DNA of 64,000 bases from Alphaproteobacteria bacterium (GTDB lineage Bacteria > Pseudomonadota > Alphaproteobacteria > RF32 > CAG-239). The first letter of the stretch is position 1. Every line of letters begins with the position of its first letter. The DNA is taken from NCBI GenBank assembly GCA_045613125.1, contig JAZLAM010000020.1, positions 4,782 through 68,781 on the forward strand, read 5' to 3'. The notes beneath the pieces were generated by a model. It was given only the letters and a program-made list of their open reading frames with translations. It ran no database searches and was not told the DNA's origin. A program made the translations under genes and the position numbers. Shown here one piece after another: positions 5,489 through 32,178 of the stretch.

Positions 5489-5755
5489 TTATTTAGATTG
5501 ATTATATTTGTATGGATCTTCTTTTTCTTTTCCGTGGTATACATCTGATGCCTGATCTAATTCTGTATTAAGTCTTCCTTTTAGTTTTGATGCACTGCTT
5601 GTTGTATCAGAAATATGAGAAGAAATATTAGAGCTTGCGCTTTGTATATAACCACTGATAGTATTCCATTGTTGATCTGGCTTAATATCGAATGCTAACC
5701 ATGTTAAACCACTACATACTGCTATAAGACCAATTAAATACAAGATAACTTTCAT
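5489..5755 (-). CDS. hypothetical small membrane-anchored protein
   Basis: ORF with an N-terminal TM helix and a Ser-rich tail; no recognisable domain. Confidence 0.3.
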   Translation of the reverse strand: MKVILYLIGLIAVCSGLTWLAFDIKPDQQWNTISGYIQSASSNISSHISDTTSSASKLKGRLNTELDQASDVYHGKEKEDPYKYNQSK

Positions 5756-5823
5756 TTTCTATTCCTCCGAAATTAAGTATATTCGAAAGTATATGAATAA
5801 TCATTTAAAAAGTATTTAATAAA

Positions 5824-6750
5824 CTAAGCAAAAATTGTATCGGTTGTGTAATCTTTATAGGCAAAAGCACTTCCGTCAATATAACGATGATTTTTGTTTA
5901 ATGCTTCAATTTCTTGCATGTCTTGATTGTCTAGTTGTATGTTTATTGCTTTTAAGTTATCTTTAAGATGTTGTTCTTTAACAGATTTCGGAATAACAAT
6001 AACACCTCGATTTATTTGCCAACTAAGTAATACTTGTGCCGGAGTAATATTTAGTTTTTGAGCAATGTTGATTATGGTTCTATCATTTAATAAATCAAAA
6101 TTATTTGAAGATACACCGGAACCTAATGGAGAGTAGGCTGTAACGGTAATCATATTTTTACGGCAAAAATCAATTAAATCTGTTTGTGTTAAATAAGGAT
6201 GAGATTCAATTTGATTAACAGCAGGTATGATGTTGCATTCAGATATTATATGTTCAAGATTTTTTTTACCGAAATTGGAAACTCCAATTGCCTTAGTTAA
6301 TCCTTGTTTTTGAACTTTTTCCATTTCTTTATATGTTATGGTTATATCTAATTCACTTAGAGATATCATATCTTCATCACTTTGTGGAAGTAAGGTCCCT
6401 TTTTTTTGAGCTATAGGCCAGTGCATTAGCCATAAATCTAGATAATCGAGTTTTAATTCTTTTAATGTTTGTTTTAGTTCAGGTAACACATCCTGTGGAT
6501 TATGAGAATCGTTCCACAGTTTTGAAGTAACAAAAATATCTTCTCTTTTTAGATTATCTTCCCTGAATGCGTCAGTGAATGCTTGTCCGATTTCTTCTTG
6601 ATTATTATAAATTGAAGCGCAGTCAAAGTGTTTATATCCTAATTTTAATGCCCATCTTATGGCTTGATAAACCTCTCCTGCATTAGATCTCCAAGTTCCT
6701 AGACCAATTACAGGTATATTTGCACCAGTGTTAAGTGTTATATATTTCAT
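5824..6750 (-). CDS. aldo-keto reductase (2,5-diketo-D-gluconate reductase-like)
   Basis: AKR signatures: GLGTW near the N-terminus, KLWN, and the IPKS C-terminal motif. Confidence 0.85.
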   Translation of the reverse strand: MKYITLNTGANIPVIGLGTWRSNAGEVYQAIRWALKLGYKHFDCASIYNNQEEIGQAFTDAFREDNLKREDIFVTSKLWNDSHNPQDVLPELKQTLKELKLDYLDLWLMHWPIAQKKGTLLPQSDEDMISLSELDITITYKEMEKVQKQGLTKAIGVSNFGKKNLEHIISECNIIPAVNQIESHPYLTQTDLIDFCRKNMITVTAYSPLGSGVSSNNFDLLNDRTIINIAQKLNITPAQVLLSWQINRGVIVIPKSVKEQHLKDNLKAINIQLDNQDMQEIEALNKNHRYIDGSAFAYKDYTTDTIFA

Positions 6751-6883
6751 GTTTTTCTCCTAAAAATGTTGTTTTAAGAGAATATAATTATCATATAGAA
6801 AAAATCCACTATGTAAAATATAAAACTTGTATTTGAGCTGAAAGCGTAATATTGTAAATATATAGTTTTAAAAGGAGATGGTT

Positions 6884-8341
6884 ATGCGTTTTTATAAAAT
6901 TTTATGCGTGTCAGCATTATGTTTTGCAACTCAAGCTTTTGCTTATGATAATATCAAAAATCTGGAAATAAGTATTTATAATGATAATTTAGCTTTAGTA
7001 AAAGATACCAGAGATATCAAACTTACATTAGGTAATAATGATATTGCATTTACCGGTGTAGCCTCTCAAATTAAAGCTGAAAGTGTAATGATACTCGGAA
7101 AAGATATTAATGTATTGGAACAAAATTATGATTATGATTTAATAACTCCTCAAAATATTCTTCAAAAATCAATAGGAAAAGATGTTAAAACCATTGTGCA
7201 AAATCCCACAACAGGAGAAAATATATTTAGCAAAGCTACAGTTTTGAGTGCTGTCGGAACAAAGCCGGTTTTAAAGTTTGATTACGGAATTGAAACAGAT
7301 TTTAGCGGACGTTTGGTTTTTGAACAATTGCCGAAAAATTTACAACAAAAACCAACTTTAATGGCGAAAATATATAGTCCTAAAGCCGGAATTCAAGAAC
7401 TTGAACTTGCATATCTTACTAATGGAATTTCGTGGAAAAGTAATTATGTGGCACGTATTGTTGATGATAAGTATCTAAATTTAACATCATGGGTTGCTAT
7501 TAATAATACATCAGGAGCAGATTATAACAATGCTCAAATTCAGCTTGTAGCCGGTGATGTAAATCAAGTTAAAGAGACCGGAGTTATGACAAATAGAGTT
7601 ATGATGGCAAAGGCAGTCACTTTAGAAACAGCTAATACGGATGCTATGGGAAGCAGAGAAACTAACCAACTAAGCTCTTACCAACTTTATACTTTGCCTA
7701 ACAGGGCTGATATTAAGGATAATCAAACTAAGCAAATTAGTTTGTTTGAACGTCTAAATGTTGATTATACAAAAGAAGGACGACTAAATTCTAGTCTTTA
7801 TTTTAATGGAGGATATCAGGCGGAATTTGAAAAAACACATCCTTTAGTTTATTATATTATCAATAATACAAAATCATCTGGTTTGGATTTACCTTTACCT
7901 GCAGGAACAATCAGGTTTTATGAAAATGATGATAATGATAATATGCAGTTTATAGGAGAAAATAATATTAATCATACGGCAAAAGGTGAAAAACTTGAGT
8001 TAAGACTTGGTAAAATGTTTAATGTCTTTGTAAATGGTAAAATTATTGATGTAAATGAAGTTTCATCAAGTAGAGTAGCAAGTGCAAATAACGGATGTTA
8101 TAGCGCAGATGTAGAAAAAGATTATAAAGCGGAAGTAGAATTTAATAATGGTGGAAATGATGATGTTAATATTGTTTTCACGCAAAATCTTGGTCAAGAT
8201 GTTAAAATGATGCAAGAAAATATAAAAGGTAAAAATAAAAATATTAATCAATATGAATGGAAGATATTGGTTTTAAAAAATTCAAAAGTAAATTTGAAGT
8301 TTACAGTTAGGGTAAAATCAAGAGAACGAATTTGTAATTAA
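6884..8341 (+). CDS. secreted DUF4140/DUF4139-like (MuiA-family-like) protein
   Basis: Signal peptide (CVSALCFATQAFA). N-terminal pattern (isIYnDnlAlVkdtRdikLtlGnNdIaFtgvaSqIkaeSvmilG) resembles DUF4140. Length about 485 aa and predicted beta-rich. Start moved to the ATG at 6884, which has good SD spacing to aggag at 6873-6877. Confidence 0.45.
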   Translation: MRFYKILCVSALCFATQAFAYDNIKNLEISIYNDNLALVKDTRDIKLTLGNNDIAFTGVASQIKAESVMILGKDINVLEQNYDYDLITPQNILQKSIGKDVKTIVQNPTTGENIFSKATVLSAVGTKPVLKFDYGIETDFSGRLVFEQLPKNLQQKPTLMAKIYSPKAGIQELELAYLTNGISWKSNYVARIVDDKYLNLTSWVAINNTSGADYNNAQIQLVAGDVNQVKETGVMTNRVMMAKAVTLETANTDAMGSRETNQLSSYQLYTLPNRADIKDNQTKQISLFERLNVDYTKEGRLNSSLYFNGGYQAEFEKTHPLVYYIINNTKSSGLDLPLPAGTIRFYENDDNDNMQFIGENNINHTAKGEKLELRLGKMFNVFVNGKIIDVNEVSSSRVASANNGCYSADVEKDYKAEVEFNNGGNDDVNIVFTQNLGQDVKMMQENIKGKNKNINQYEWKILVLKNSKVNLKFTVRVKSRERICN

Positions 8342-8352
8342 TTTATCAAATT

Positions 8353-8385
8353 GCTCCTTAAAGTTTCTTAAGGAGCTTTTTTTTA
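8353..8385 (+). terminator. rho-independent terminator
   Basis: gctccttaa/ttaaggagc stem with a 6-nt loop, followed by T8. Confidence 0.65.
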
Positions 8386-8393
8386 TTTTTTTC

Positions 8394-8422
8394 TTGCAAC
8401 TTACTGAAAAATTTGGTAAATT
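8394..8422 (+). promoter_or_regulatory. putative sigma70 promoter (TTGCAA, 17 bp spacer, TAAATT) for the 1159-aa lipoprotein gene
   Basis: Hexamers and spacing read directly from the sequence; about 115-nt leader to the ATG at 8540. Confidence 0.35.
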
Positions 8423-8539
8423 GTGAGTGATAAAAAGTTTTTGTGTTTATTATGGAGAATTGAAAAGATTTTTCAAAACCGTTTGTTATACGCAAAAGCT
8501 TTAATTTTGAATATTAATCATTAAAATTTATTTTATATT

Positions 8540-11500
8540 ATGGCAAAAATTAAAACTTTTGCAGCCGTTGTTTTATGTGCTGTAATGTTCATTTCCTCTT
8601 CATGTGAGGAACAAATGGAATCAACCTATGTAGGTTTTTCTGAAGGAATTAAAAGTACAAATATGAAGTACGAAAGTATGGAATATATTGTAAAGTTTGA
8701 CACGATAGTGAATGAATTATTCACTGTTGAGCAGAATGTACTAGGAGACATCGTAGAGTATGAAAACGATCAAGCAATTGACGTAAGTAGTTTTTTCTAT
8801 GAGTTAGATCTTAACGTTAAATTTAACGTTGAACCACAGCAGGTTTATGTTCTAAAAAAGGAACAACTGAGTTCTGTTGCGATGACATCGTCAAATGTAG
8901 CAGATAAAGTTGTTAAAGACAGTACGGAAGATGATTTCACCCTTACTTCGGTTGGATGTGAATATGAGTTTGTTTTTAACGAGGGCGAAAAAGTTGTAGC
9001 AAAAAGTGTATATGAGAAAGTTTCTCATATGGACACAACTTTTTCATATGCTGAAATCAGTCGGGTATCGTATAAGAAAAGCGATAGTAAACTGGATGAG
9101 GTAAAGACAAATGAGGATTCGATCGTGCATGATGTAAATTTCTATTTTGATGTAGAAATGATTATCAAGCGAGATACCGATGAAACAAGGACGTATGTGG
9201 TAAGAGTACCTGTGGAAAGAATTTACATGGAAGAGCTGGCAGAAGCTGTAACTGAGATTAAGGATTTGGAGTATAAGGGAAAATTTGCCGTAAGGGAAAG
9301 CGAACTTTATACAGTTGAACAATATGATTTAGGTTATTATGTGACGACATTGAAGGACAAAGAAGTTACCCGTAAGATGTTCAAATATGATCTGGATTTG
9401 AATGTTAAGTTCGATATCAATCCTAAAAAAGTGACAGTTGATAGTCCAAACAAATTAACGGATGTTGCGCTTAAGAGTGCGACGGCAGGAGATGAAGTTA
9501 AGCAAGAAATTAACCAAGATGAGTTCACCAAAGCTACAGTTGAACGTGACTATGAGTTTGTGTTCAATGAAGGTGAGGTTGTAACGGCAAAATCTTTATA
9601 TCAATATCTTTATAACAAAGATATGACATTTGCATATGCTGAGATTAGAAGTGTAACATATAAGAGATATGATACAAGTCCTAATCCTAACTCAAGCGAA
9701 GATGTAAAGATTTATGATATCGACCTTTATTTTGAGGTTGATATTGAGGGTAAGGAAGGTGCTAATATTGACGGAAAATATGAAGTAGTAGTTTCATATC
9801 AACGTGTATACGAGGTACCTGATACCCCCGTTTCTGAGACGGTGATAGAGAACGTAGAATATGTGGGTCAATTTGATACCATAACCAAAAAACTCTTTAC
9901 CGTAAGACAAGAAGTCAATGGTGATTTTGTAACCTACACTCAAAATAATGAAGAAATATCAAAAGAGCATTTTGAGAGAAAATTAAATCTTGAGGCAATT
10001 TTTGATATTCCTGCTGTTGTTTACGTAAATAGCGAACAAGAACTTGCAGATGTCAGTTTGACCAGCAGCTCAAAGGATGGCAACAAGGAAACAAAGTCAA
10101 GTTCGGATGGCTTTACCACTATAACTCGTTCGCAAAATTATAACTTTAAGTTTAATTGCAATGAGAATGTGGTTTCAGCAACTGAATATGACCGAGAAAC
10201 CTATGGTGATACATTGTTGATTTATTCTTCAATTGATAATATTACATACAAAAATTGTAATGTTGAAAAGAACGAAGCAAAATCTAATGTTGATTCAACC
10301 GTATATGATGTTATGCTTTACTTTAATGTAAATGTAAAACGTCATGTCAAAACAACATCTAAAACCCATCTTGTTGCTGTTCCTTATGCTCGTGTTTTGA
10401 AACATGTAGCAAAAGATACTCTTGTAAAGAAAAATTATCGTGATGTAAGAAGAAAAATTCTTTCAAGCACTACGGAATTAGTTTCTTTTACTGAGTATGA
10501 AATTTGGAGTGTTTCAGGCGAGAAAAATGCTAAGACAATCTCTAAAGTTTTGAACTTTGGTTTTACTAATCCATCAAATCAGACAGTTTATACAACCAAT
10601 ACTAACTATAAGACAATGTCTAATGGTTCTGTAGAGGGAAAAGAAACTTCAAGCAAGGATGGAAATTGGACGGTTTATACTCAAACTAACAATTATTCAT
10701 CAACAGCTGACAATGGAAATAAGTCCTTTAACAATAAGTATTCATATAATAGCCAAAAAGCTATTTATACAAATGAACACTATACTGTTGAATTTGCTTA
10801 TGGCAATTGGTCTGTAAACGAAGGTTCAAGTAATGTCGGTTCTAAGAATGGTGAAACAACATATAATGGTAATGCATACGAAGTTTATCCATATGTAAAC
10901 AACGTATCTTACACTTATGATGTTGAAGATGATTCTTATAGTGGTAATGGACAGTCAAATGTGAATGTTTGCATTGAAAAACCGGAAGAAGATATTCTTG
11001 TAGCTATCAATTATCGTGATGTAAGAAGAGAAATTCTTTCAAGCACTACGGAATTAGTTTCTTTTACTGAGTATGAAATTTGGAGTGTTTCAGGAGCGAA
11101 AAACGCTAAGACAATCTCTAAAGTTTTGAACTTTGGTTTTAATAATCCTTCATCACAGACAGTTTATACAACCAATACTAACTATAAGACAATGTCTAAT
11201 GGTTCTGTAGAGGGAAAAGAAACTTCAAGCAAGGATGGAAATTGGACAGTTTATACTCAAACTAACAATTATTCATCAACTGCTGACAATGGAAATAAGT
11301 CATTTAACAATAAGTATTCATATAATAGTCAAAAAGCTATTTATACAAATGAACACTACACTGTTGAATTTGACTATGGAAGTTGGTCTGTAAGCGAGGG
11401 TTCAAGCAATGTCGGTTCTAAGAATGGTGAAACAACATATAATGGTAATGTATACGAAGTTTATCCATATGTAAACAACGTATCTTACACTTATGATGTT

Positions 11501-12019
11501 GAAGATGATTCTTATAGTGGTAATGGACAGTCAAATGTGAATGTTTGCATTGAAAAGGAAGTCGGTTCTATTATTCCTGAAGAATGGGGTAAAATTATCG
11601 GCGCAGGTATTTCAGCTGTTCCGGCAGATGATGTAAATGGTACTTATGCTAAAAAGTGCTTGTGTATCAGGACTGAAAACGGAGCTGTTTCTGTTGTTTT
11701 TGACATGAACTCTACTGTTCCTACTGTAGAACAAATTCTGGGAGGTAACTTTGTAGTAGGTGATTATGATGCAACATACAACAGTGGTGTGTATACTAAT
11801 GGTGAATGGGAGCCAGCAATTGCTAAGGATTTGAGTGATCGTATTGCATATTATCAAGGTGAAACTTGTATGCGTAATATTCGTCACACTACTTTGCAAC
11901 GTTGGAATTGGAGAAATGGTAATATGTCAACAGTTGTTGATGGTTATGTATTCTCAGTTTCCAACAATGGAACCATTACAATTATGTATAATGGACAATC
12001 TGTTATGCAAATGCGTTAA
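8540..12019 (+). CDS. large repetitive surface lipoprotein (1159 aa), Asn/Tyr/Ser/Thr-rich, internal repeats
   Basis: Signal peptide with lipobox-like FISSSC. Three divergent ~200-aa repeats, each containing motifs such as EYEFVFNEGE..VAKS.Y and FYFDVE. Then two ~97% identical 192-aa repeats and a unique ~150-aa C-terminal domain. No known catalytic motif. Confidence 0.6.
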   Translation: MAKIKTFAAVVLCAVMFISSSCEEQMESTYVGFSEGIKSTNMKYESMEYIVKFDTIVNELFTVEQNVLGDIVEYENDQAIDVSSFFYELDLNVKFNVEPQQVYVLKKEQLSSVAMTSSNVADKVVKDSTEDDFTLTSVGCEYEFVFNEGEKVVAKSVYEKVSHMDTTFSYAEISRVSYKKSDSKLDEVKTNEDSIVHDVNFYFDVEMIIKRDTDETRTYVVRVPVERIYMEELAEAVTEIKDLEYKGKFAVRESELYTVEQYDLGYYVTTLKDKEVTRKMFKYDLDLNVKFDINPKKVTVDSPNKLTDVALKSATAGDEVKQEINQDEFTKATVERDYEFVFNEGEVVTAKSLYQYLYNKDMTFAYAEIRSVTYKRYDTSPNPNSSEDVKIYDIDLYFEVDIEGKEGANIDGKYEVVVSYQRVYEVPDTPVSETVIENVEYVGQFDTITKKLFTVRQEVNGDFVTYTQNNEEISKEHFERKLNLEAIFDIPAVVYVNSEQELADVSLTSSSKDGNKETKSSSDGFTTITRSQNYNFKFNCNENVVSATEYDRETYGDTLLIYSSIDNITYKNCNVEKNEAKSNVDSTVYDVMLYFNVNVKRHVKTTSKTHLVAVPYARVLKHVAKDTLVKKNYRDVRRKILSSTTELVSFTEYEIWSVSGEKNAKTISKVLNFGFTNPSNQTVYTTNTNYKTMSNGSVEGKETSSKDGNWTVYTQTNNYSSTADNGNKSFNNKYSYNSQKAIYTNEHYTVEFAYGNWSVNEGSSNVGSKNGETTYNGNAYEVYPYVNNVSYTYDVEDDSYSGNGQSNVNVCIEKPEEDILVAINYRDVRREILSSTTELVSFTEYEIWSVSGAKNAKTISKVLNFGFNNPSSQTVYTTNTNYKTMSNGSVEGKETSSKDGNWTVYTQTNNYSSTADNGNKSFNNKYSYNSQKAIYTNEHYTVEFDYGSWSVSEGSSNVGSKNGETTYNGNVYEVYPYVNNVSYTYDVEDDSYSGNGQSNVNVCIEKEVGSIIPEEWGKIIGAGISAVPADDVNGTYAKKCLCIRTENGAVSVVFDMNSTVPTVEQILGGNFVVGDYDATYNSGVYTNGEWEPAIAKDLSDRIAYYQGETCMRNIRHTTLQRWNWRNGNMSTVVDGYVFSVSNNGTITIMYNGQSVMQMR
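10415..11566 (+). repeat. near-perfect tandem duplication, 2 x 576 bp (192 aa), inside the lipoprotein CDS
   Basis: aattatcgtgatgtaagaaga... at 10433 recurs at 11009 (offset 576 bp). Only scattered substitutions (e.g. K/E, E/A, T/N, A/D, N/S, A/V at protein level). Confidence 0.85.
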
Positions 12020-24143: not shown

Positions 24144-25526
24144 ATGAAGAATATGTCAACCGGTTCACCGGCAAAATTAATATTACTGTTTAGTTTACCT
24201 TTGTTAATAGGTAATATTTTTCAACAATTGTATAATATATCCGATATTTTAATTGTTGGCCGTTTGATAGGGGTCAACGCTTTGGCTGCGGTTGGATCAA
24301 CGGCTCCGCTTTATTTTGTTTTCTTGCTTATTTCTTTTGGATTTACGGCAGGTTTAACGGTTATTACTGCACAAAATTTTGGTGCAAAAAATTATGATTT
24401 GATGCGAAAATCTATAACACACTGTGTTATGGCAAGTACTGCTTTAAGCGTTTTAATAATGTTTTTATTGTTAGTTTTTTTAAGACCTTTTTTAATTTTA
24501 ATGAATATTCCGGAAATTATTTTTGAAGATTCTTATAATTTTATGGCCATTTTGACAGGCGGAATGGTAATGATAGTCTTCTTTAATTTATTGTCCGGTT
24601 TTATTAGAGCTGTCGGAGATAGTAAAACACCATTATATTTTTTGATTTTTTCTACGGTTTTAAATGTATTGTTTAATTTCACATTTATTTATTATTGCAA
24701 ATTAGGTGTTATAGGCTCAGCTTTAGGCACTGTTTGTGCAATTTGTATAGCTGTATTTTTGTGCTTGGCTTATATGTATAAAAAATTTCCGATTATGCGT
24801 CTTAAAAAATCTGATTGGAAATATGATAAACAATTTATGAGGGATCATTTGGCAGTTGCTGTGCCTATGGCTCTACAATTTTCAGTATTATCATTTAGTT
24901 TAATGATTATTCAAAGTGTTTGTAATTCATTCGGTCCTGATGTGATTGCAGCTTTTACGGCAGCTTTAAGAATTGAACAGCTTGCTACCCAACCTTTATT
25001 GGCGTTAGGTATCGCTATGGCAACATATGTGGCACAAAATTGGGGAGCCAGAAAATTAGCGCGCATCAGGAAAGGAGTACGTTTTGCAGCATTAGTATCT
25101 TTAATAATAGGTATTTGCGCATCTTTGTCAGTTAGATTTATTGGTAGTGATATGATTGCTATTTTTATCAAAGATGAAAATCCGTTAATTATTGAAATCG
25201 GAAAGGAATATTTGCGTTTAAGTACTTATTTTTATTTCTTTTTAGGAATGATTTTTGTTTTCAGAAATGCCTTGCAAGGTATGGGAAAAACATTGATCCC
25301 ATTATTGGGAAGTTGCGTGGAACTGGTTTTACGATCTTTTGCTGCAATATATTTGGCTAATATTATCGGATACAAAGGAGTGTTCTATGCTGCTCCCATC
25401 GCATGGGTAGGCGCAGCAATTGTTGTTATTGTAGGATATTTTTGGGTAATATATAATCTTAAATTTTCTAAAACTAAAAATTATAGTATCTTACAACGGT
25501 ATAATAAAATAGTAACAAACAAATAA
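24144..25526 (+). CDS. MATE-family multidrug/oligosaccharidyl-lipid efflux transporter
   Basis: 12-TM architecture with two 6-TM halves; N-terminal MATE-type motif (PLLIGNIFQQLYNISDILIVGRL). Confidence 0.8.
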   Translation: MKNMSTGSPAKLILLFSLPLLIGNIFQQLYNISDILIVGRLIGVNALAAVGSTAPLYFVFLLISFGFTAGLTVITAQNFGAKNYDLMRKSITHCVMASTALSVLIMFLLLVFLRPFLILMNIPEIIFEDSYNFMAILTGGMVMIVFFNLLSGFIRAVGDSKTPLYFLIFSTVLNVLFNFTFIYYCKLGVIGSALGTVCAICIAVFLCLAYMYKKFPIMRLKKSDWKYDKQFMRDHLAVAVPMALQFSVLSFSLMIIQSVCNSFGPDVIAAFTAALRIEQLATQPLLALGIAMATYVAQNWGARKLARIRKGVRFAALVSLIIGICASLSVRFIGSDMIAIFIKDENPLIIEIGKEYLRLSTYFYFFLGMIFVFRNALQGMGKTLIPLLGSCVELVLRSFAAIYLANIIGYKGVFYAAPIAWVGAAIVVIVGYFWVIYNLKFSKTKNYSILQRYNKIVTNK

Positions 25527-25617: not shown

Positions 25618-26064
25618 ATGAATGAAAATAAAATTTATTATATAGTATCAGGAGGTTTTGACCCTATACATGAGGGGCATATCCAAATGATAAGCGCTGC
25701 CGCAGAAGCATCTGACGGTGTGATTGTTTTGCTTAATTCGGATGCGTGGTTATGTCGTAAAAAAGGTAAAAATTTTCATTCTATAAAAACAAGAAAGGTT
25801 ATATTGGAACACATAAAAGGTGTTATTGATGTTATAGAGTTTGATGATACAGATGGAAGTGCTTCTGATGGAATTTATAAAGCTCGTAGTAAGTATCTGA
25901 ATGATAAACTCGTATTTGCAAACGGCGGAGATCGAAGAAAAGATAATATTCCTGAAATACAAATATGTCAAAAATATGATATAGATTTGGTTTTTGGTGT
26001 TGGCGGAGATTATAAAGCTAATTCTTCTTCGTGGATTTTACAAAAATGGGAAAAAAAGGATTAA
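25618..26064 (+). CDS. sugar-phosphate nucleotidyltransferase, HldE domain II-like (heptose-1-phosphate adenylyltransferase-like cytidylyltransferase fold)
   Basis: GGFDPIHEGH (HxGH nucleotidyltransferase motif). VIVLLNSDAWLCRKKGKN and GGDYK, matching the RfaE/HldE adenylyltransferase domain pattern (LIVAVNSDASV.RLKG...KGGDYK). Confidence 0.6.
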   Translation: MNENKIYYIVSGGFDPIHEGHIQMISAAAEASDGVIVLLNSDAWLCRKKGKNFHSIKTRKVILEHIKGVIDVIEFDDTDGSASDGIYKARSKYLNDKLVFANGGDRRKDNIPEIQICQKYDIDLVFGVGGDYKANSSSWILQKWEKKD

Positions 26065-26067
26065 GAT

Positions 26068-26802
26068 ATGAAAAAACTTATTGTTATACCCACATATAAT
26101 GAAAAAAAGAATATTAATGAATTGTTATCAAGGATCTTTTATGTTCAGAAAGATGTTGATGTGTTAATTGTTGATGATAATTCTCCCGATGGTACAGGTA
26201 AATTAGTGGATAAATTTATACAGGATAAAGTGTTTGGAGATTCTTTATTTGTGTTACACAGATCTTGTAAATTAGGGTTAGGAACTGCGTATATAGAAGG
26301 TTTTACATGGGGAATGGAAAAAGGCTACGATGTATTTTTAAGTATGGATGCCGATATGTCTCATAATCCTAAATATTTACCTCAAATTTTTTCAGCTATG
26401 CAAGAAAATGATTTGGTTATCGGTTCAAGATACGTTAAAGGTGGTGGTGTTAGAGATTGGCCTTTGCTAAGACGTTTAATTTCGCTTGGTGGTAATATAT
26501 ACTCTCAAATGGTTTTAATGTCTAATGTTAGAGATCTTACAGGTGGATTTAACTGTTACCATAGACGTTTTCTTGAGAAAATTAATTTAAAAAGCATTGT
26601 GTCTAAGGGATATTGTTTTCAAATTGAGATGAAGTTTAGACATGTTTTATTAGGTTGTAAAATCAAAGAGATTCCCATTATTTTTGCAGATAGAAAGATG
26701 GGTGTATCAAAAATGAGTGGTAGCATTTTTAAGGAAGCTGTTTTCGGGGTAATTAATTTATCACTGAAACGTAACGAAATTAGAACTAAAATGAAAGTTT
26801 AG
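26068..26802 (+). CDS. GT2 polyprenyl-phosphate glycosyltransferase (Dpm1/ArnC/GtrB-like)
   Basis: VIPTYNEKKNI ... VDVLIVDDNSPDGT ... DADMSH (DXD) motifs. Confidence 0.8.
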   Translation: MKKLIVIPTYNEKKNINELLSRIFYVQKDVDVLIVDDNSPDGTGKLVDKFIQDKVFGDSLFVLHRSCKLGLGTAYIEGFTWGMEKGYDVFLSMDADMSHNPKYLPQIFSAMQENDLVIGSRYVKGGGVRDWPLLRRLISLGGNIYSQMVLMSNVRDLTGGFNCYHRRFLEKINLKSIVSKGYCFQIEMKFRHVLLGCKIKEIPIIFADRKMGVSKMSGSIFKEAVFGVINLSLKRNEIRTKMKV

Positions 26803-26805
26803 AAA

Positions 26806-28368
26806 ATGATAGATGCTGTTAAGAAATTTTTCAAGACCGGATTTGCTGATATAAACGAAGTCTTTATTCAACCTTTTATAGAATTGTCATTTTACAAAAA
26901 ATGCTTTGTTTTAATAGTTTGTGGTTTGCTTCTTTATGTCCCATATATAAATTTGGTAAACGCCTCTCATGACGAACAGTACACAATGTTAATGAATCGG
27001 TTTTCTATCCCGGAGATGATTAGAATTATTGCAACCGAAGACGGACATCCTCCGTTTTCTTATCTGTATGCTAAGTTTTGGTGTGTGTTGTTTGGTGGCG
27101 ATGCATATAATATTTTACCGATGCGTATTGCGACACTTTTTAGTTTTTTTATGTTAGCACTGTTAGGGGTGTTTCCTGTAAGACGTTTGTTGGGTGATAA
27201 AGTAGCTCTTATCTTTATTGCTTCGGTTTTCTTGTTGCCATCGGCATATTTCTTAGCTATGAACATGAGAATGTATCCGTTAGCAGTGTTTTTGATTACG
27301 GGAACATTTATCTATGCTATGCTGATGGTTTATAAACCTAAGAAATTCGATTGGTTGTTGTTTGGCATATTTTCACTTCTTTCTCTTTATACTCACTACT
27401 ATGCTGCCATTTTAACAGTGGTTATTTGGGGAGTGGTGTTCCTTGATTTGATACGCCTTAAAAAATATAAAACTCTTAAAAAGTTTTTCTTAGGTGGTGT
27501 CGTAATTTCTCTTATGTACTTACCATGGTTGTTTGCTTTTATGCAACAATATCAAAATATGAAAGAAAATTGGTATCCGACAACAAATCATGTGTTTTTT
27601 GCTATTAGAGGAGCTTTGATGATTTACCAATCTCCGATAGAGATTTTTACTCTTTTTGCTGAGTTTTTCGGAATTTTATGTTGGTTATTGGTTTTTGAAT
27701 TTTTAATTGATAAAGATAAGAAAAATATTACGCATGTTGTTGTAAAACGAGCAGTTTGGGTGTTTTGGAGTATTTATATTATATCAGCATTATCTTCTAT
27801 CTTTTTTAGACCTAACTTAGTGGCAATGTATATGTGTATACCAGTAGGATTATTATATTTAAGCATTGCGATAACTTTTGTGCACTTCAAAAAATACAGA
27901 ACAATGCTTTTACTTTTCTTATTTCCTGTATTTTTAGTTGGTTATAGTGAATGTTATTATAAAGCTAATGATGAAACACTAGGTAATATGAAAAAATATA
28001 TTCAAACAAATATGTCGAAAGATACTTTAGTGTTATATGATTATACTCATGGACATATAAATATGATGTTTTATGGCAAAGACGCCAAGCTTTATTCCAC
28101 ATTATATAAAAACTACTTAGTTTTATATAAAGATGAAGTGCTAAAGGAAGAAGATAATATTAAAGATTTAAGTAAATATAAAGACATATATCATCTTTCG
28201 GTGCTGTGGTGGGACAATGAATATGGTGGATGTGATGCATCATTTGCAGCAAAATATGAAAGAAAATTTTATTGTTTTAATAAACTGGATGTCAAACAGG
28301 CAGAAAAACTTATTGAAAAGAAGAAAAGTTTTCGAATATTATCACTTGGTAATGTCCAGAAACACTAA
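26806..28368 (+). CDS. GT-C fold membrane glycosyltransferase (ArnT/PMT_2, GT39/GT83-like)
   Basis: About 11 TM helices. First periplasmic loop EDGHPPFSYLYAKFW resembles the ArnT/PMT motif. C-terminal ~140-aa soluble domain. 4-nt gaps to flanking genes indicate an operon. Confidence 0.55.
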   Translation: MIDAVKKFFKTGFADINEVFIQPFIELSFYKKCFVLIVCGLLLYVPYINLVNASHDEQYTMLMNRFSIPEMIRIIATEDGHPPFSYLYAKFWCVLFGGDAYNILPMRIATLFSFFMLALLGVFPVRRLLGDKVALIFIASVFLLPSAYFLAMNMRMYPLAVFLITGTFIYAMLMVYKPKKFDWLLFGIFSLLSLYTHYYAAILTVVIWGVVFLDLIRLKKYKTLKKFFLGGVVISLMYLPWLFAFMQQYQNMKENWYPTTNHVFFAIRGALMIYQSPIEIFTLFAEFFGILCWLLVFEFLIDKDKKNITHVVVKRAVWVFWSIYIISALSSIFFRPNLVAMYMCIPVGLLYLSIAITFVHFKKYRTMLLLFLFPVFLVGYSECYYKANDETLGNMKKYIQTNMSKDTLVLYDYTHGHINMMFYGKDAKLYSTLYKNYLVLYKDEVLKEEDNIKDLSKYKDIYHLSVLWWDNEYGGCDASFAAKYERKFYCFNKLDVKQAEKLIEKKKSFRILSLGNVQKH

Positions 28369-29474
28369 CTACATAAATCTTCTATGATTTTATTTAACAA
28401 CAAGAAACCTTCTTTTGTAGCATATATACAATCGGAGGTTTCTTTTATTAGACCTAAATTTAACAATTCGTTTTTTGCTTTTTGATTTATAAAATTATCA
28501 AATTTTATATTACATATTTGTTCAAAATGCTGTTTATTTATACCTTGATTAAGCCGTAATCCCATAATTATCAGCTCTTCAGCTCGTTCTTGCTTGGTAA
28601 GCTTTTCCATATTATGAGGATACGTTATGGCAAAATGTTCATCGTTAATTTTTAAGCGTCCGTGAGCAGATTCTCCAATGCCTATATATTCGTCTCCAAG
28701 CCAATAACACTTATTGTGTGATGACTGATATGAAACTTGAGCAAAATTTGAAACCTCATATTGCGGATAGCCGTTTGCTTCTAAAAAAGATATTGTATCA
28801 GTGTACATTCTAGCAGCTAATTCTTCATTAAGAGGTTTAATACCTTTTGCTGCAAAAACAGTTCCTTCTTCTATGGTTAACTGATATAATGATAAATGCT
28901 TAAATCCAAAATTTACAGATTGCTCAAGTTCTTTTTGCCATGAAGAAAATGTTTGTTCTGGTCTTGCATATATCAAATCAATAGAGTGATTATTAAAAGA
29001 TGTTAAAACCTCCTCAATGCTATGCAATGCTTGATTTAAGTTATGTGTGCGTCCCAAAAACTTTAAGTCATTGTCATTTAGTGCTTGCACACCAAGAGAA
29101 AGACGATTTACACCGGCATTTTTAATGAGCTTAAACATGTTTTCATATTCAGAGTTCGGATTGGCTTCTAAGCTGATTTCGATGTTTTTTTCTATCGGCC
29201 ATAATTTATATATATGTTCAATGATACGATATATATTTTCGGGTTTTATAAGGGAAGGGGTTCCACCACCAAAAAACACAGATCGAACTACTCTGTTTGG
29301 AACTAAAGAATGATAATAATCCAATTCTTTTATGTAAGTATCAATAATGAGCGTTTGATCTAAATCTTTTTTTATTTTTTTAAAAAAATCACAATAAGGG
29401 CATTTGCTTTTGCAAAAAGGCCAATGAATATAAATTGATAAGGGTTTATATTCCATTGGCCTTAAAACTTTCAA
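28365..29474 (-). CDS. hemW: radical SAM heme chaperone HemW (coproporphyrinogen III oxidase-like)
   Basis: CKSKCPYCDF radical-SAM cysteine motif; FFGGGTPS; HemN-like C-terminal domain. Confidence 0.8.
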   Translation of the reverse strand: MKVLRPMEYKPLSIYIHWPFCKSKCPYCDFFKKIKKDLDQTLIIDTYIKELDYYHSLVPNRVVRSVFFGGGTPSLIKPENIYRIIEHIYKLWPIEKNIEISLEANPNSEYENMFKLIKNAGVNRLSLGVQALNDNDLKFLGRTHNLNQALHSIEEVLTSFNNHSIDLIYARPEQTFSSWQKELEQSVNFGFKHLSLYQLTIEEGTVFAAKGIKPLNEELAARMYTDTISFLEANGYPQYEVSNFAQVSYQSSHNKCYWLGDEYIGIGESAHGRLKINDEHFAITYPHNMEKLTKQERAEELIIMGLRLNQGINKQHFEQICNIKFDNFINQKAKNELLNLGLIKETSDCIYATKEGFLLLNKIIEDLCS

Positions 29475-29485
29475 TAAAATTGATA

Positions 29486-30376
29486 TTAAACTAAAATTGT
29501 ATCAAGAAGTTCTTTGGTATACGCCCTTAAATCAGGATTTAACATCAAAGATAATTTCAAATTTGATTTAGCCAGTTCATCGTTGGTGCCACAATCAAAA
29601 CGCAGACCTCTGCATAACACACCTGTTAACGGTACACCACGTTCTGTAGCCAAATTAAGAGCATCGGTAAGATTAATTTCACCATTTGAACCGTTTTTAA
29701 CTTCAGGTAAAATATCCATAATTACATTAGGTAAAATATATGGCCCCATGCTGGCATAATTTGACGGAACTTCTTCCAATTTTGGTTTTTCAACCAAACC
29801 TTTAGCCTGAACAGTGCGTCCATCCCTTACGGCACCGACCAATGCACCATATCTTACCATTTCTTCTTTCGGAAATTCCATAATATTTTCAACTATCCCG
29901 CCGGTTTTTTCATAAACATCGGAAAGTTGTTTTAAGATACCTTCTCCGTGAAAATTAATATATATATCATCCGGCCACATTACAATGAAATCTCGTTTTC
30001 CGACAATTTCTTTGGCCATTAAAATTGCATGTCCGTTACCTAAAGGCTCTTTTTGTTCAGCAAAAGAAAATTTCATCCCTTCAGGAATTATATCTTTAAC
30101 AGCTTTGAGTAAATCTGTTTTTCCCTTTTTTTCTAAATGTGCTTCAAGCCAAGGATATGGAGAAAAATATCTTTCAAAAAGATGTTTACAAGATTGATCA
30201 CTATAAATAAAGACAATCTCTTTAACACCGATTTCTTTACAAGCATTTATGGCATATTGAATAATCGGAAGGTTGTTTAATGTTAAAAAACCTTTATGTA
30301 AAACTTTAGTTGCTGGGAGGTTGCGAGTAGATAAACCGGCAACCGGTAAAATACAAACTTCTGGTTTGTTAGGCAT
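29486..30376 (-). CDS. galU: UTP--glucose-1-phosphate uridylyltransferase
   Basis: N-terminal PVAGLSTRNLPATKVLHKGFL, close to the GalU consensus ([21 protein letters not shown]); about 295 aa. Confidence 0.85.
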   Translation of the reverse strand: MPNKPEVCILPVAGLSTRNLPATKVLHKGFLTLNNLPIIQYAINACKEIGVKEIVFIYSDQSCKHLFERYFSPYPWLEAHLEKKGKTDLLKAVKDIIPEGMKFSFAEQKEPLGNGHAILMAKEIVGKRDFIVMWPDDIYINFHGEGILKQLSDVYEKTGGIVENIMEFPKEEMVRYGALVGAVRDGRTVQAKGLVEKPKLEEVPSNYASMGPYILPNVIMDILPEVKNGSNGEINLTDALNLATERGVPLTGVLCRGLRFDCGTNDELAKSNLKLSLMLNPDLRAYTKELLDTILV

Positions 30377-30470: not shown

Positions 30471-32024
30471 TTATCTTGCATATTGATTAAATATATATGC
30501 ATTTATATCTGGAGTAAAACCATTATCTTTTATGCGTTTATTATTGATAGAATTTTGGATTATATGTCCATACCTGTTAGAGACCTGATATATACCTTCA
30601 AAACGAGCAATTTCCGAAGCTGAAAGGTTTGTAAAAGCTTCTTCAATATCCAAAGATGCAGAAGGTGAAAATTCATCAAAAGTGGGTTCTAACTTACCAA
30701 TCATGCGTAAAAAACACATTCTGTTAGTTTCATCATCAAGGCTAAAAGCTTCTTTTGCATTAAAATCTTTTAACGATTCCGGCATATATTCATTAAACAA
30801 AAAGTCTCGGCATTCTTTATATGTTCCGTCTGCAAAATCTGGCTCGGCTTCAATCTGGAGATATCCATCATCTTCGAGGCGTCTTACTTTATCAACAACC
30901 ATCATATTATATTGATGTATTGCATTTTTGTTTATTTGTGCAATTTTGTTCGTCAAGATTTTCTTTCTTGCCAATAACTGAGCTTTTTCCATTTCTTGTT
31001 GTTTAACATTTTTTTGCATTCTTATTTCTTCAGGATCTTGGCTGTTTTTATTAAGTTGTTTTTTTAATCTCTCTGTTTTATCATAGTCTTTATTTATCTG
31101 TTTTTCAATTTCTCTAATTTCTTCATAAACTTTATGAGTTCTTATATCTGCATAATAAAGACAATCTATTTTGAATTGTACTTCTGTATCAATTATTTGG
31201 CCTTCTTCATCAGGAATATGTAAAACAAGTTTGATATCAAAATACATTTTGGGGTTATCTTCCAATTTGTCGGTAAAACGATTACGAGTTTCTTCAAAAA
31301 TGGTATAATAAGGCTCTTCTTCTTTTATCCTTTTTTCTTCAGAAGCGTTGGTTTTGTGATAGTCTTTGGAATTTTTTGTACATATGGTTCTGTCTCTTTG
31401 AAACAAATTACAAACACGTTCAACATCGGTTTTGTATTTACAAGTTACCGTAAGGCGTAAAGGATCATGTAACTTACTGCTTGGAGACGGTATATCTTGT
31501 AAAGCTGAAGTATATCCTTCTCTATCTTCATCAATAAATGCAATATCCGAAATTTTATGCAACTCTTTATTATATTCTTTACCATATTCATAAATGGTTT
31601 TATCAACCGCTCTTCTTGCATCTTTCATTTTCGGAAAGATAATTTTTATCGGATTGTTAAATTTATCAAAATATAAAAGTTCGGTGTTTGTGAAAGGAGT
31701 AACAACTTTTAGCGAATAGTTTATCGGAGCTCCGTTTGCATCTGTTTCAACTTTACCGGTGTTAAGATCAATTGCATAAGTTGCTTCCGGTTGTCTGAAT
31801 AAGTCAAAAATAGCACGATATGTACGATTATATATTTTACCTGGATTTTTATAAAACTTTTTTAAACAGTCATAACTAATGTCATCAATTTCCATATCTT
31901 TATATGCTTGATAAATAATCGCAAGGTTTTTCTCAGACATTTCGGATATAATTTCTTTTATCCGATTCTTAGGCATTTCAAAAACTTCACTTACACTATA
32001 TTCTTTTTCTTTATTTTCTAACAT
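30471..32024 (-). CDS. hypothetical protein, ~517 aa, central coiled coil; no confident domain
   Basis: Start set at MLENKEKEY (aagg SD 9 nt upstream). Weak, unverified resemblance of the segment QIIDTEVQFKIDCLYYADIRTHKVYE to the RelA/SpoT-synthetase EIQIRT...WAE.EH..YK motif. Confidence 0.35.
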   Translation of the reverse strand: MLENKEKEYSVSEVFEMPKNRIKEIISEMSEKNLAIIYQAYKDMEIDDISYDCLKKFYKNPGKIYNRTYRAIFDLFRQPEATYAIDLNTGKVETDANGAPINYSLKVVTPFTNTELLYFDKFNNPIKIIFPKMKDARRAVDKTIYEYGKEYNKELHKISDIAFIDEDREGYTSALQDIPSPSSKLHDPLRLTVTCKYKTDVERVCNLFQRDRTICTKNSKDYHKTNASEEKRIKEEEPYYTIFEETRNRFTDKLEDNPKMYFDIKLVLHIPDEEGQIIDTEVQFKIDCLYYADIRTHKVYEEIREIEKQINKDYDKTERLKKQLNKNSQDPEEIRMQKNVKQQEMEKAQLLARKKILTNKIAQINKNAIHQYNMMVVDKVRRLEDDGYLQIEAEPDFADGTYKECRDFLFNEYMPESLKDFNAKEAFSLDDETNRMCFLRMIGKLEPTFDEFSPSASLDIEEAFTNLSASEIARFEGIYQVSNRYGHIIQNSINNKRIKDNGFTPDINAYIFNQYAR

Positions 32025-32178
32025 GTTACAACCTTTCATGAAGAAACATTTTGCCATAAATTTTATTGTTTGGCAAGTTTTAATTTTAGTCCTAAATAAA
32101 AATATACATGTGTGTTAAATGATAAAAGAGTTGAGGTTTAAAAATATACTGTTATTCTTAAACTCAAGGAGAAATATA

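Follow-up and report, generated by a model that had tools for sequence, protein, structure and literature searches.

A predicted lipid-carrier mannosylation operon of an alphaproteobacterium with a putative GDP-mannose pyrophosphorylase of the HIGH-motif fold

In a 64,000-nucleotide stretch of the genome of an uncultured gut alphaproteobacterium (Alphaproteobacteria bacterium; GenBank assembly GCA_045613125.1, contig JAZLAM010000020.1, positions 4,782 to 68,781; hereafter the window), we analyzed three consecutive forward-strand genes. They encode a 148-aa HIGH-motif nucleotidyltransferase (NT; 25618–26064, PF01467 CTP_transf_like), a 244-aa glycosyltransferase of Dpm1/Ppm1 type (GT2; 26068–26802, PF00535), and a 520-aa multi-pass membrane glycosyltransferase recognized by its AlphaFold fold (GT-C; 26806–28368). 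The three genes probably make up a single operon with translational coupling, whose products attach mannose to an envelope acceptor outside the cytoplasm via a lipid carrier. The donor sugar is predicted most likely to be mannose and not heptose, because the genes adjacent or fused to NT relatives encode PMI, PMM, GMD, and Fcl, and because the GT2 carries a guanine-binding aspartate. The logic of the pathway, a polyprenyl-phosphate mannose synthase working with a GT-C, is already known, and the assignment of the NT is the new element: judged by its genomic context and gene fusions, it is probably a non-orthologous mannose-1-phosphate guanylyltransferase. With somewhat less assurance, we favor the view that a so far undescribed class of GDP-mannose pyrophosphorylase is represented here, one that is based on the cytidylyltransferase fold with the HIGH motif, has replaced ManC in Alphaproteobacteria of gut and rumen, in Holosporaceae and Puniceicoccales, and possibly in SAR11, and occurs as a bifunctional NT::PMI enzyme on hundreds of aquatic viral contigs.

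The genes are tightly packed, with 3 nt separating the stop codon from the next ATG at both junctions, and an AAGGA precedes the GT2 gene. A preliminary description of the locus had proposed a three-gene cassette with 4-nt gaps; the packed, same-strand arrangement stands, but the gaps measure 3 nt. The G+C content of the trio, 0.31, is the same as that of its flanks. The order NT–GT2–GT-C recurs in four other genomic backgrounds, in loci L005/L006 and L094 and in the metagenome contig L102, where the junctions are 1-nt gaps or 4-nt overlaps and the GT-C is 50–59% identical to that of the window. The flanks differ: in L005/L006, the trio lies between a sulfatase-family gene upstream and mlaC downstream, while in L094, it is preceded by a thioredoxin gene and a gene for a 572-aa multi-pass protein and again followed by mlaC. 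As the same order recurs with different flanks, the arrangement is not due to chance. More distant loci, at 36% identity, retain the GT2 and GT-C as a pair but have no NT (L007 and L095). In L007 (5742–9542), two GT-C paralogs, 35–37% identical to the GT-C of the window, stand in tandem behind the Dpm1-type GT2, and the locus adjoins an autotransporter and a two-partner-secretion locus. In L008, from the metagenome-assembled genome (MAG) RGIG4267, the genome closest to the window, a MATE transporter gene, the NT, and the GT2 are collinear with the window, while the segment comprising the GT-C gene and 64 nt from the 3′ end of hemW has the opposite orientation and is flanked by three inserted open reading frames (ORFs). 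The inversion could be a real rearrangement or a misassembly of the MAG. The inserted ORFs (within 5545–10310) encode products of 207, 604, and 137 aa, none with a Pfam match, the 604-aa product being soluble with an HNH-like H-H...N...H stretch.

The closest relative of the GT2 among solved structures is the dolichyl-phosphate mannose synthase (DPMS) of Pyrococcus furiosus (PfDPMS, 5mlz; E = 3.9e-33), with ArnC- and GtrB-type enzymes following at about 1e-7. The protein has no transmembrane (TM) domain, as is the case for type-I Dpm1 and Ppm1 catalytic subunits. We mapped its residues through an HMMER alignment onto the PfDPMS residues described in PMC5526996 and assessed their conservation in 18 homologs, including ones from cultured bacteria, down to 52% identity. 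Y10 and E12 of the DPMS signature are retained. Invariant in the 18 homologs are D37, the counterpart of the D39 that binds guanine N1/N2 in PfDPMS, and G70-L71, matching the stacking residues G68-L69; D94, A95, D96, S98, and H99 of the DADxxH motif (here D94-A-D96-M-S-H99; D89-A-D91 and H94 in PfDPMS); R121, R135, and S139, equivalent to the acceptor-phosphate site R117, R131, and S135; and the A-loop residues R209 and K215, equivalent to R202 and K208 (PMC5526996). Of the donor, metal, and acceptor-phosphate residues described for PfDPMS, only F177 and Q93 differ, each being replaced by serine. Homologs 55–64% identical to the GT2, including those of cultured bacteria, are named polyprenol monophosphomannose synthase by NCBI, a naming that is automated. 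The prediction of a Dpm1-type polyprenyl-phosphate mannose synthase is thus supported at the sequence level, in agreement with the Dpm1-like GT2 of the preliminary description. Its comparison with ArnC/ArnT fits the architecture but not the synthase, which scores only 36.8 bits with the ArnC model NF007986 (cut-off 529).

For the third gene, sequence searches against Pfam, NCBIfam, and PDB gave no match, even with a 24-sequence profile, and its identity was therefore resolved only through an AlphaFold2 model and Foldseek. The protein has 46 homologs among 5.8 billion sequences. PF13231 (PMT_2) was present in 9 of the 24 aligned homologs, the more distant ones carrying it (best E = 1.5e-8), and the link to the window protein, which itself matches neither this family nor PF02366, is transitive. 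The AlphaFold2 model, computed from the 24 sequences, reached a pLDDT of 90.8 and a pTM of 0.91, and its top 30 PDB matches were exclusively GT-C enzymes, ArnT being the best (5ezm, TMq 0.60) and the others including STT3, PglB, AglB, AftA, ALG9/12, Pmt4, and EmbA/B. At the level of the fold, this bears out the earlier proposal of an ArnT/PMT-like GT-C. The protein has about 10 hydrophobic spans. Of the acidic pair directly after TM1, D56 is invariant and E57 at least 90% conserved; in the same first periplasmic loop, D79 and H81 are invariant and P82 is invariant or nearly so. Further conserved residues are R155-M-Y157, Y195, H197, Y198, and P240-W241. The conserved residues fit a periplasmic active site, and the model points to a very divergent GT-C-fold enzyme distantly belonging to the PMT_2/GT39/GT83 clan. 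Proteins of 570–620 aa with 8–10 TM spans and no Pfam match are encoded beside GT2 genes or the NT in L001 (2758–4626), L094 (3025–4743), and L095 (7369–9090). They may be further unrecognized GT-C-like enzymes, and one of them, L095_573, weakly resembles the GT-C of the window (E = 0.001).

The NT matches PF01467 above the cut-off in a Pfam scan (E = 2.2e-11) and carries the HxGH motif as H18-E-G-H21, of which H18, G20, and H21 are invariant in the family alignment; with this motif and a Rossmann-like fold, it belongs to the HIGH-motif nucleotidyltransferase superfamily. As a member of PF01467 and not of PF00483, it lies outside the NTP_transferase fold and is thus not a canonical ManC, although it may work like one. 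All GDP-mannose pyrophosphorylases known to us have the NTP_transferase fold, and a literature search for one with a cytidylyltransferase fold returned nothing relevant. By sequence and fold searches, the NT is about equally distant from TagD, HldC, CCT, ECT, the CyTase domain of Fom1, and PPAT. Its AlphaFold2 model (pLDDT 82) is about equally close to TagD, HldC, CCT, Fom1, and PPAT (TM scores of 0.5–0.63), and the structural neighbors of this model do not discriminate the substrate. The C-terminal half of the protein is distinctive. We recovered approximately 8,000 homologs, the best 120 listed being all at least 71% identical to the NT, and the family alignment, which reaches Puniceicoccales and SAR11, has a mean column identity of 73%. 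Database names for the family are either generic ("cytidyltransferase") or inconsistently HldE or TagD, with some homologs called HldE in both JGI and RefSeq. We rejected the NT as a CoaD, NadD, or RibF cofactor enzyme, as all scores were far under the curated cut-offs (27 bits with the CoaD model, against a cut-off of 103). Together with the finding of the family almost everywhere in glycan clusters, this upholds the earlier assignment of the NT to glycosylation and not to cofactor synthesis.

The context of the NT was analyzed in 162 distinct loci, drawn from metagenomes and from genomes representative of their species, and its neighbors were scored by tblastn probes that had been validated with Pfam and NCBIfam. 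A core subset consisted of 60 loci with enough flank and an NT at least 60% identical to that of the window. PMI, PMM, GMD, or Fcl was found within 3 kb of the NT in 33 of these and directly adjacent to it in 24, and a glycosyltransferase of the GT4, GT2, GT8, or Dpm1 type was nearby in 38. NTP_transferase-fold probes matched near the NT in none of the 60 loci, although the probes used (RmlA and GalU) may miss a monofunctional ManC. The nearby GMDs are true equivalogs, scoring 437–562 bits against a curated cut-off of 415. NTs 73–75% identical to that of the window lie directly beside PMM or GMD in L099, L101, L103, and L104.

The PMI found near the NT is the type-II cupin domain that normally makes up the C terminus of the bifunctional GMP/PMI (ManC). 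Here, it comes without the GMP domain, either as a protein of its own or joined to a PMM of eukaryote type. A compact PMI::PMM–NT–GT4 unit stands alone between ffh and cas1 in one Holosporaceae MAG, and the route that it encodes from fructose-6-phosphate to a mannoside is complete only on condition that the NT catalyzes the step otherwise missing. Fusions of a type-II PMI cupin to a eukaryote-type PMM (HAD, PF03332) lie directly upstream of the NT in the Holosporaceae-like MAG loci L017 (4845–5915), L018 (777–1853), and L020 (3751–4854); with its three non-canonical parts, this mannose pathway is unusual for bacteria. In a more distant group of NTs from genome and metagenome loci, 27 of the 28 cases in which NT and PMI are neighbors consist of one fused ORF, and both of its Pfam domains exceed the cut-off. 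Relatives of the NT are also present on 413 viral contigs of IMG/VR, and 77 of the best 80 of these (L177–L256) encode the NT and PMI together in a single ORF of about 255 aa (e.g., L177 5001–5744; other instances of the fusion are L164 5992–6756, L169 963–1739, and L136 5980–6765). This viral fusion looks like a widespread phage auxiliary gene, named only "cytidyltransferase-like" in databases. The NT::PMI fusions mirror the canonical GMP::PMI enzyme, which carries a type-II PMI (PMC9602691). From these contexts, we infer that the NT family supplies GDP-mannose and that the NT of the window would feed the adjacent Dpm1-type GT2.

The proposed pathway has four steps. The NT would convert mannose-1-phosphate and a nucleoside triphosphate, most likely GTP, into GDP-mannose, taking the place of ManC as its context and fusions suggest. 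The GT2, presumably attached to the membrane by amphipathic helices, would then load polyprenyl (undecaprenyl) phosphate with the mannose of GDP-mannose to form polyprenyl-P-β-mannose, a step predicted from sequence and structural homology. The lipid-linked mannose would be flipped across the membrane, the upstream MATE protein being one candidate for this. Finally, the GT-C, whose fold comes from a model and whose chemistry is deduced from it, would use its periplasmic site around the D56/E57 loop to transfer the lipid-linked sugar to an acceptor, which may be lipid A or the core of the lipopolysaccharide (LPS), a different glycolipid, or a protein that is secreted or resides in the envelope. 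The tandem paralogs of L007 and the adjacency to mlaC in L005 and L094 tilt the balance slightly in favor of a lipid or LPS acceptor over a protein. If the NT acts as proposed, the cassette would be a self-sufficient unit leading from mannose-1-phosphate to a periplasmic mannoside. Domains, residues, and folds agree on the three-step logic of the preliminary description: nucleotide-sugar synthesis, lipid-carrier loading by the GT2, and periplasmic transfer by the GT-C.

Several observations weigh against this interpretation. We know of no member of the HIGH fold that uses GTP or α-mannose-1-phosphate, and the nearest sugar-1-phosphate enzyme of this fold, HldC, takes β-heptose-1-phosphate and ATP. 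Searches for PMI, PMM, and GMD in the window found none. The screen for ManC covered the neighborhoods of the NT, and a ManC elsewhere in the genome could have escaped it. In SAR11 (63 loci), the NT (54% identical) lies downstream of a ComF-like gene among housekeeping genes, with no glycan genes nearby, and in T4-like cyanophages, a stand-alone homolog sits between the genes for DNA polymerase gp43 and uvsX; function may therefore vary across the wider family. The inverted GT-C of L008 means that co-transcription of the trio is not universal. In the GT2, the metal ligand Q93 of PfDPMS (PMC5526996) is replaced by serine. In the SAR11 example L032 (5307–6420), the NT overlaps the end of the ComF-like phosphoribosyltransferase gene, with pdxH, fabI, and aroC around it, and the cyanophage NTs (L257 6001–6465 of Synechococcus phage S-SSM7; L258 5995–6456 of Prochlorococcus phage P-TIM68) are annotated as HldE, TagD, or hypothetical.

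Other activities of the NT would give the cassette a different meaning. The preliminary description had seen in the NT a hint of heptose or another unusual sugar, and an HldC-like role, in which the NT would produce ADP-, CDP-, or UDP-heptose for the GT2 to load onto the lipid carrier, is an alternative that we regard as unlikely. The sequence pattern of the NT does resemble HldE domain II (NSD, GGD, and a C-terminal SSS for STT), HldC is among its structural neighbors, some homologs are annotated as HldE, and the HldC model TIGR02199 matches with an E value of 7e-12, but the score is 45.3 bits against a cut-off of 181.5. The C-terminal motif of HldC, (F/L)xxGRSTT (PMC11573728), was looked for in the NT family alignment in this form and as GxSTT and is absent, an invariant K-x-N-(S)-S-S (KANSSSWIL) being there instead. 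The Pfam-annotated neighborhoods of the NT showed no GmhA, HldA, GmhB, or GT9 heptosyltransferase and had PMI, PMM, GMD, and Fcl in their place, and the GT2 has the guanine and mannose contacts of DPMS. The hint of heptose was thus not borne out. The best sequence and fold matches of the NT, TagD (E = 1.5e-8), ECT, and the CyTase domain of Fom1, could instead suggest activation of a non-sugar phosphate (CDP-glycerol as by TagD, CDP-choline, CDP-ethanolamine, or a phosphonate) or of a cofactor, unrelated to the GT2 and GT-C, and the non-glycan contexts in SAR11 and cyanophages would agree with this. We find such a role very improbable: all curated models score far under their cut-offs (47.1 bits with the TagD model TIGR01518, cut-off 165.4); the alignment with TagD is confined to the N-terminal ~70 residues (9–76 versus 1coz); no glycerophosphotransferase, LicD, or PepM gene is present in the annotated neighborhoods; and enzymes of this kind would not be expected to be fused to PMI or to neighbor PMM and GMD. 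With scores under the curated cut-offs, a missing motif or a partial alignment, and no partner genes in the annotated neighborhoods, both HldC and TagD were rejected as identities of the NT.

A further alternative accepts GDP-mannose as the product of the NT but places it in other pathways, the NT being a mere neighbor of a GtrB-like polyprenyl-P-glucose synthase fed by GalU. A galU-like gene indeed lies 1.1 kb downstream of the GT-C (29486–30376, reverse strand), PfDPMS has some activity with GDP-Glc (PMC5526996), and GtrB-type systems represent the classical three-component model (PMC11127046). Against this, the galU-like gene sits on the opposite strand behind the convergent hemW (28365–29474), whose end overlaps the stop of the GT-C by 4 nt, and no galU is found beside the trio in L005, L094, or L102. 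The GT2 lacks the TM domain of GtrB, its similarity to DPMS far exceeds that to ArnC- or GtrB-type enzymes, and the NT–GT2 junction is conserved, with overlaps or gaps of 1–3 nt. We therefore doubt the glucose route about as much as heptose, and the proposal that galU provides UDP-glucose for the cassette falls with the lack of conserved adjacency. The product of the galU-like gene scores 212 bits with TIGR01099, under the curated cut-off of 326.8, and is a divergent sugar-1-phosphate nucleotidyltransferase of uncertain specificity. A functional link of the trio to either galU or hemW was rejected on account of their strand and unconserved adjacency. Mannose, activated by the NT and loaded by the GT2, remains the donor that we favor.

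The MATE-family transporter gene (24144–25526, forward strand; PF01554 and TIGR00797, both above cut-off) ends 91 nt upstream of the NT on the same strand. In a related GT2/GT-C system, the PPPRS/MATE/GT136 of Citrobacter youngae, a MATE protein has been put forward as the flippase (PMC11127046). By analogy, the protein is a candidate flippase for the lipid-linked sugar, as the preliminary description had it, but the adjacency is kept only in L008 and is absent in L005, L094, and L102, and membership of the MATE gene in the cassette is uncertain. No terminator-like site was predicted between the MATE and NT genes, a scan that is powerless in DNA of 31% G+C; the promoter and terminator scans gave site counts equal to the shuffled expectation in such AT-rich DNA and are hence uninformative. 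The rest of the window consists of housekeeping genes of a small low-G+C alphaproteobacterium (secDF, metG, trkH, folA-thyA, rplM-rpsI, ppdK, and lolCD), and its nearest named relatives are rumen and gut MAGs under the label "Alphaproteobacteria bacterium." The window also has a 528-aa ORF without Pfam or NCBIfam match (30471–32057, reverse strand) and two large ORFs of 2,027 aa (36763–42846, reverse strand) and 1,159 aa (8540–12019, forward strand).

GDP-mannose is a central nucleotide sugar, and a second, unrelated fold for its synthesis, if true, would fill apparent ManC gaps in the metabolic reconstructions of abundant uncultured lineages. It would also correct the inconsistent annotations as HldE, TagD, or "cytidyltransferase," and a common phage auxiliary gene could be reread as a two-step mannose-activation enzyme. 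For gut alphaproteobacteria, the cassette predicts a mannose modification of the envelope.

Among known systems, the cassette resembles the Ppm1/Pmt and Dpm1/PMT mannosylation of Actinobacteria and eukaryotes in its Dpm1-family GT2, with DPMS residues and no TM domain, and in the paired GT-C of the PMT_2 clan, whose first extracytoplasmic loop carries an acidic D-E pair. It differs from them in its Gram-negative alphaproteobacterial host, in having a gene for nucleotide-sugar synthesis inside the operon, and in a GT-C that Pfam misses owing to its divergence and that shares only about 12% identity with GT-Cs of solved structure. With the GtrA/GtrB/Gtr* systems and the C. youngae PPPRS/MATE/GT136 system (PMC11127046), it shares a lipid-phosphate sugar synthesized in the cytoplasm as the donor for a GT-C outside, and with the latter also an adjacent MATE gene, although here the adjacency is not conserved. 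Unlike in those systems, the cassette has no GtrA (PF04138), the synthase is of Dpm1 type and neither GtrB-type nor PRPP-dependent, and the third conserved gene encodes a nucleotidyltransferase and not a flippase. The combination of a GT2 polyprenyl-P sugar synthase with an ArnT-like GT-C is also found in ArnC/ArnT, FlmF/FlmK, LgmA/LgmB, and RgtE/RgtA-D; in contrast to ArnC/ArnT, the window region has no ArnA, B, D, E, or F genes and no deacetylase, and the predicted donor is mannose. The NT itself shares with HldC, HldE domain II, and TagD its fold, the HxGH motif, and a C-terminal motif of SSS/STT type, while it differs from HldC and TagD in scores far under both cut-offs and in annotated neighborhoods devoid of heptose and teichoic-acid partner genes. 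HldC demonstrates that the HIGH fold can accept a manno-configured sugar-1-phosphate. Like ManC, the NT holds the pyrophosphorylase position in PMI–PMM–GMD–Fcl clusters and is fused to the same type-II PMI cupin; unlike ManC, with its GT-A-like NTP_transferase fold, it is a HIGH-motif protein of about 145 aa with a Rossmann cytidylyltransferase-like fold.

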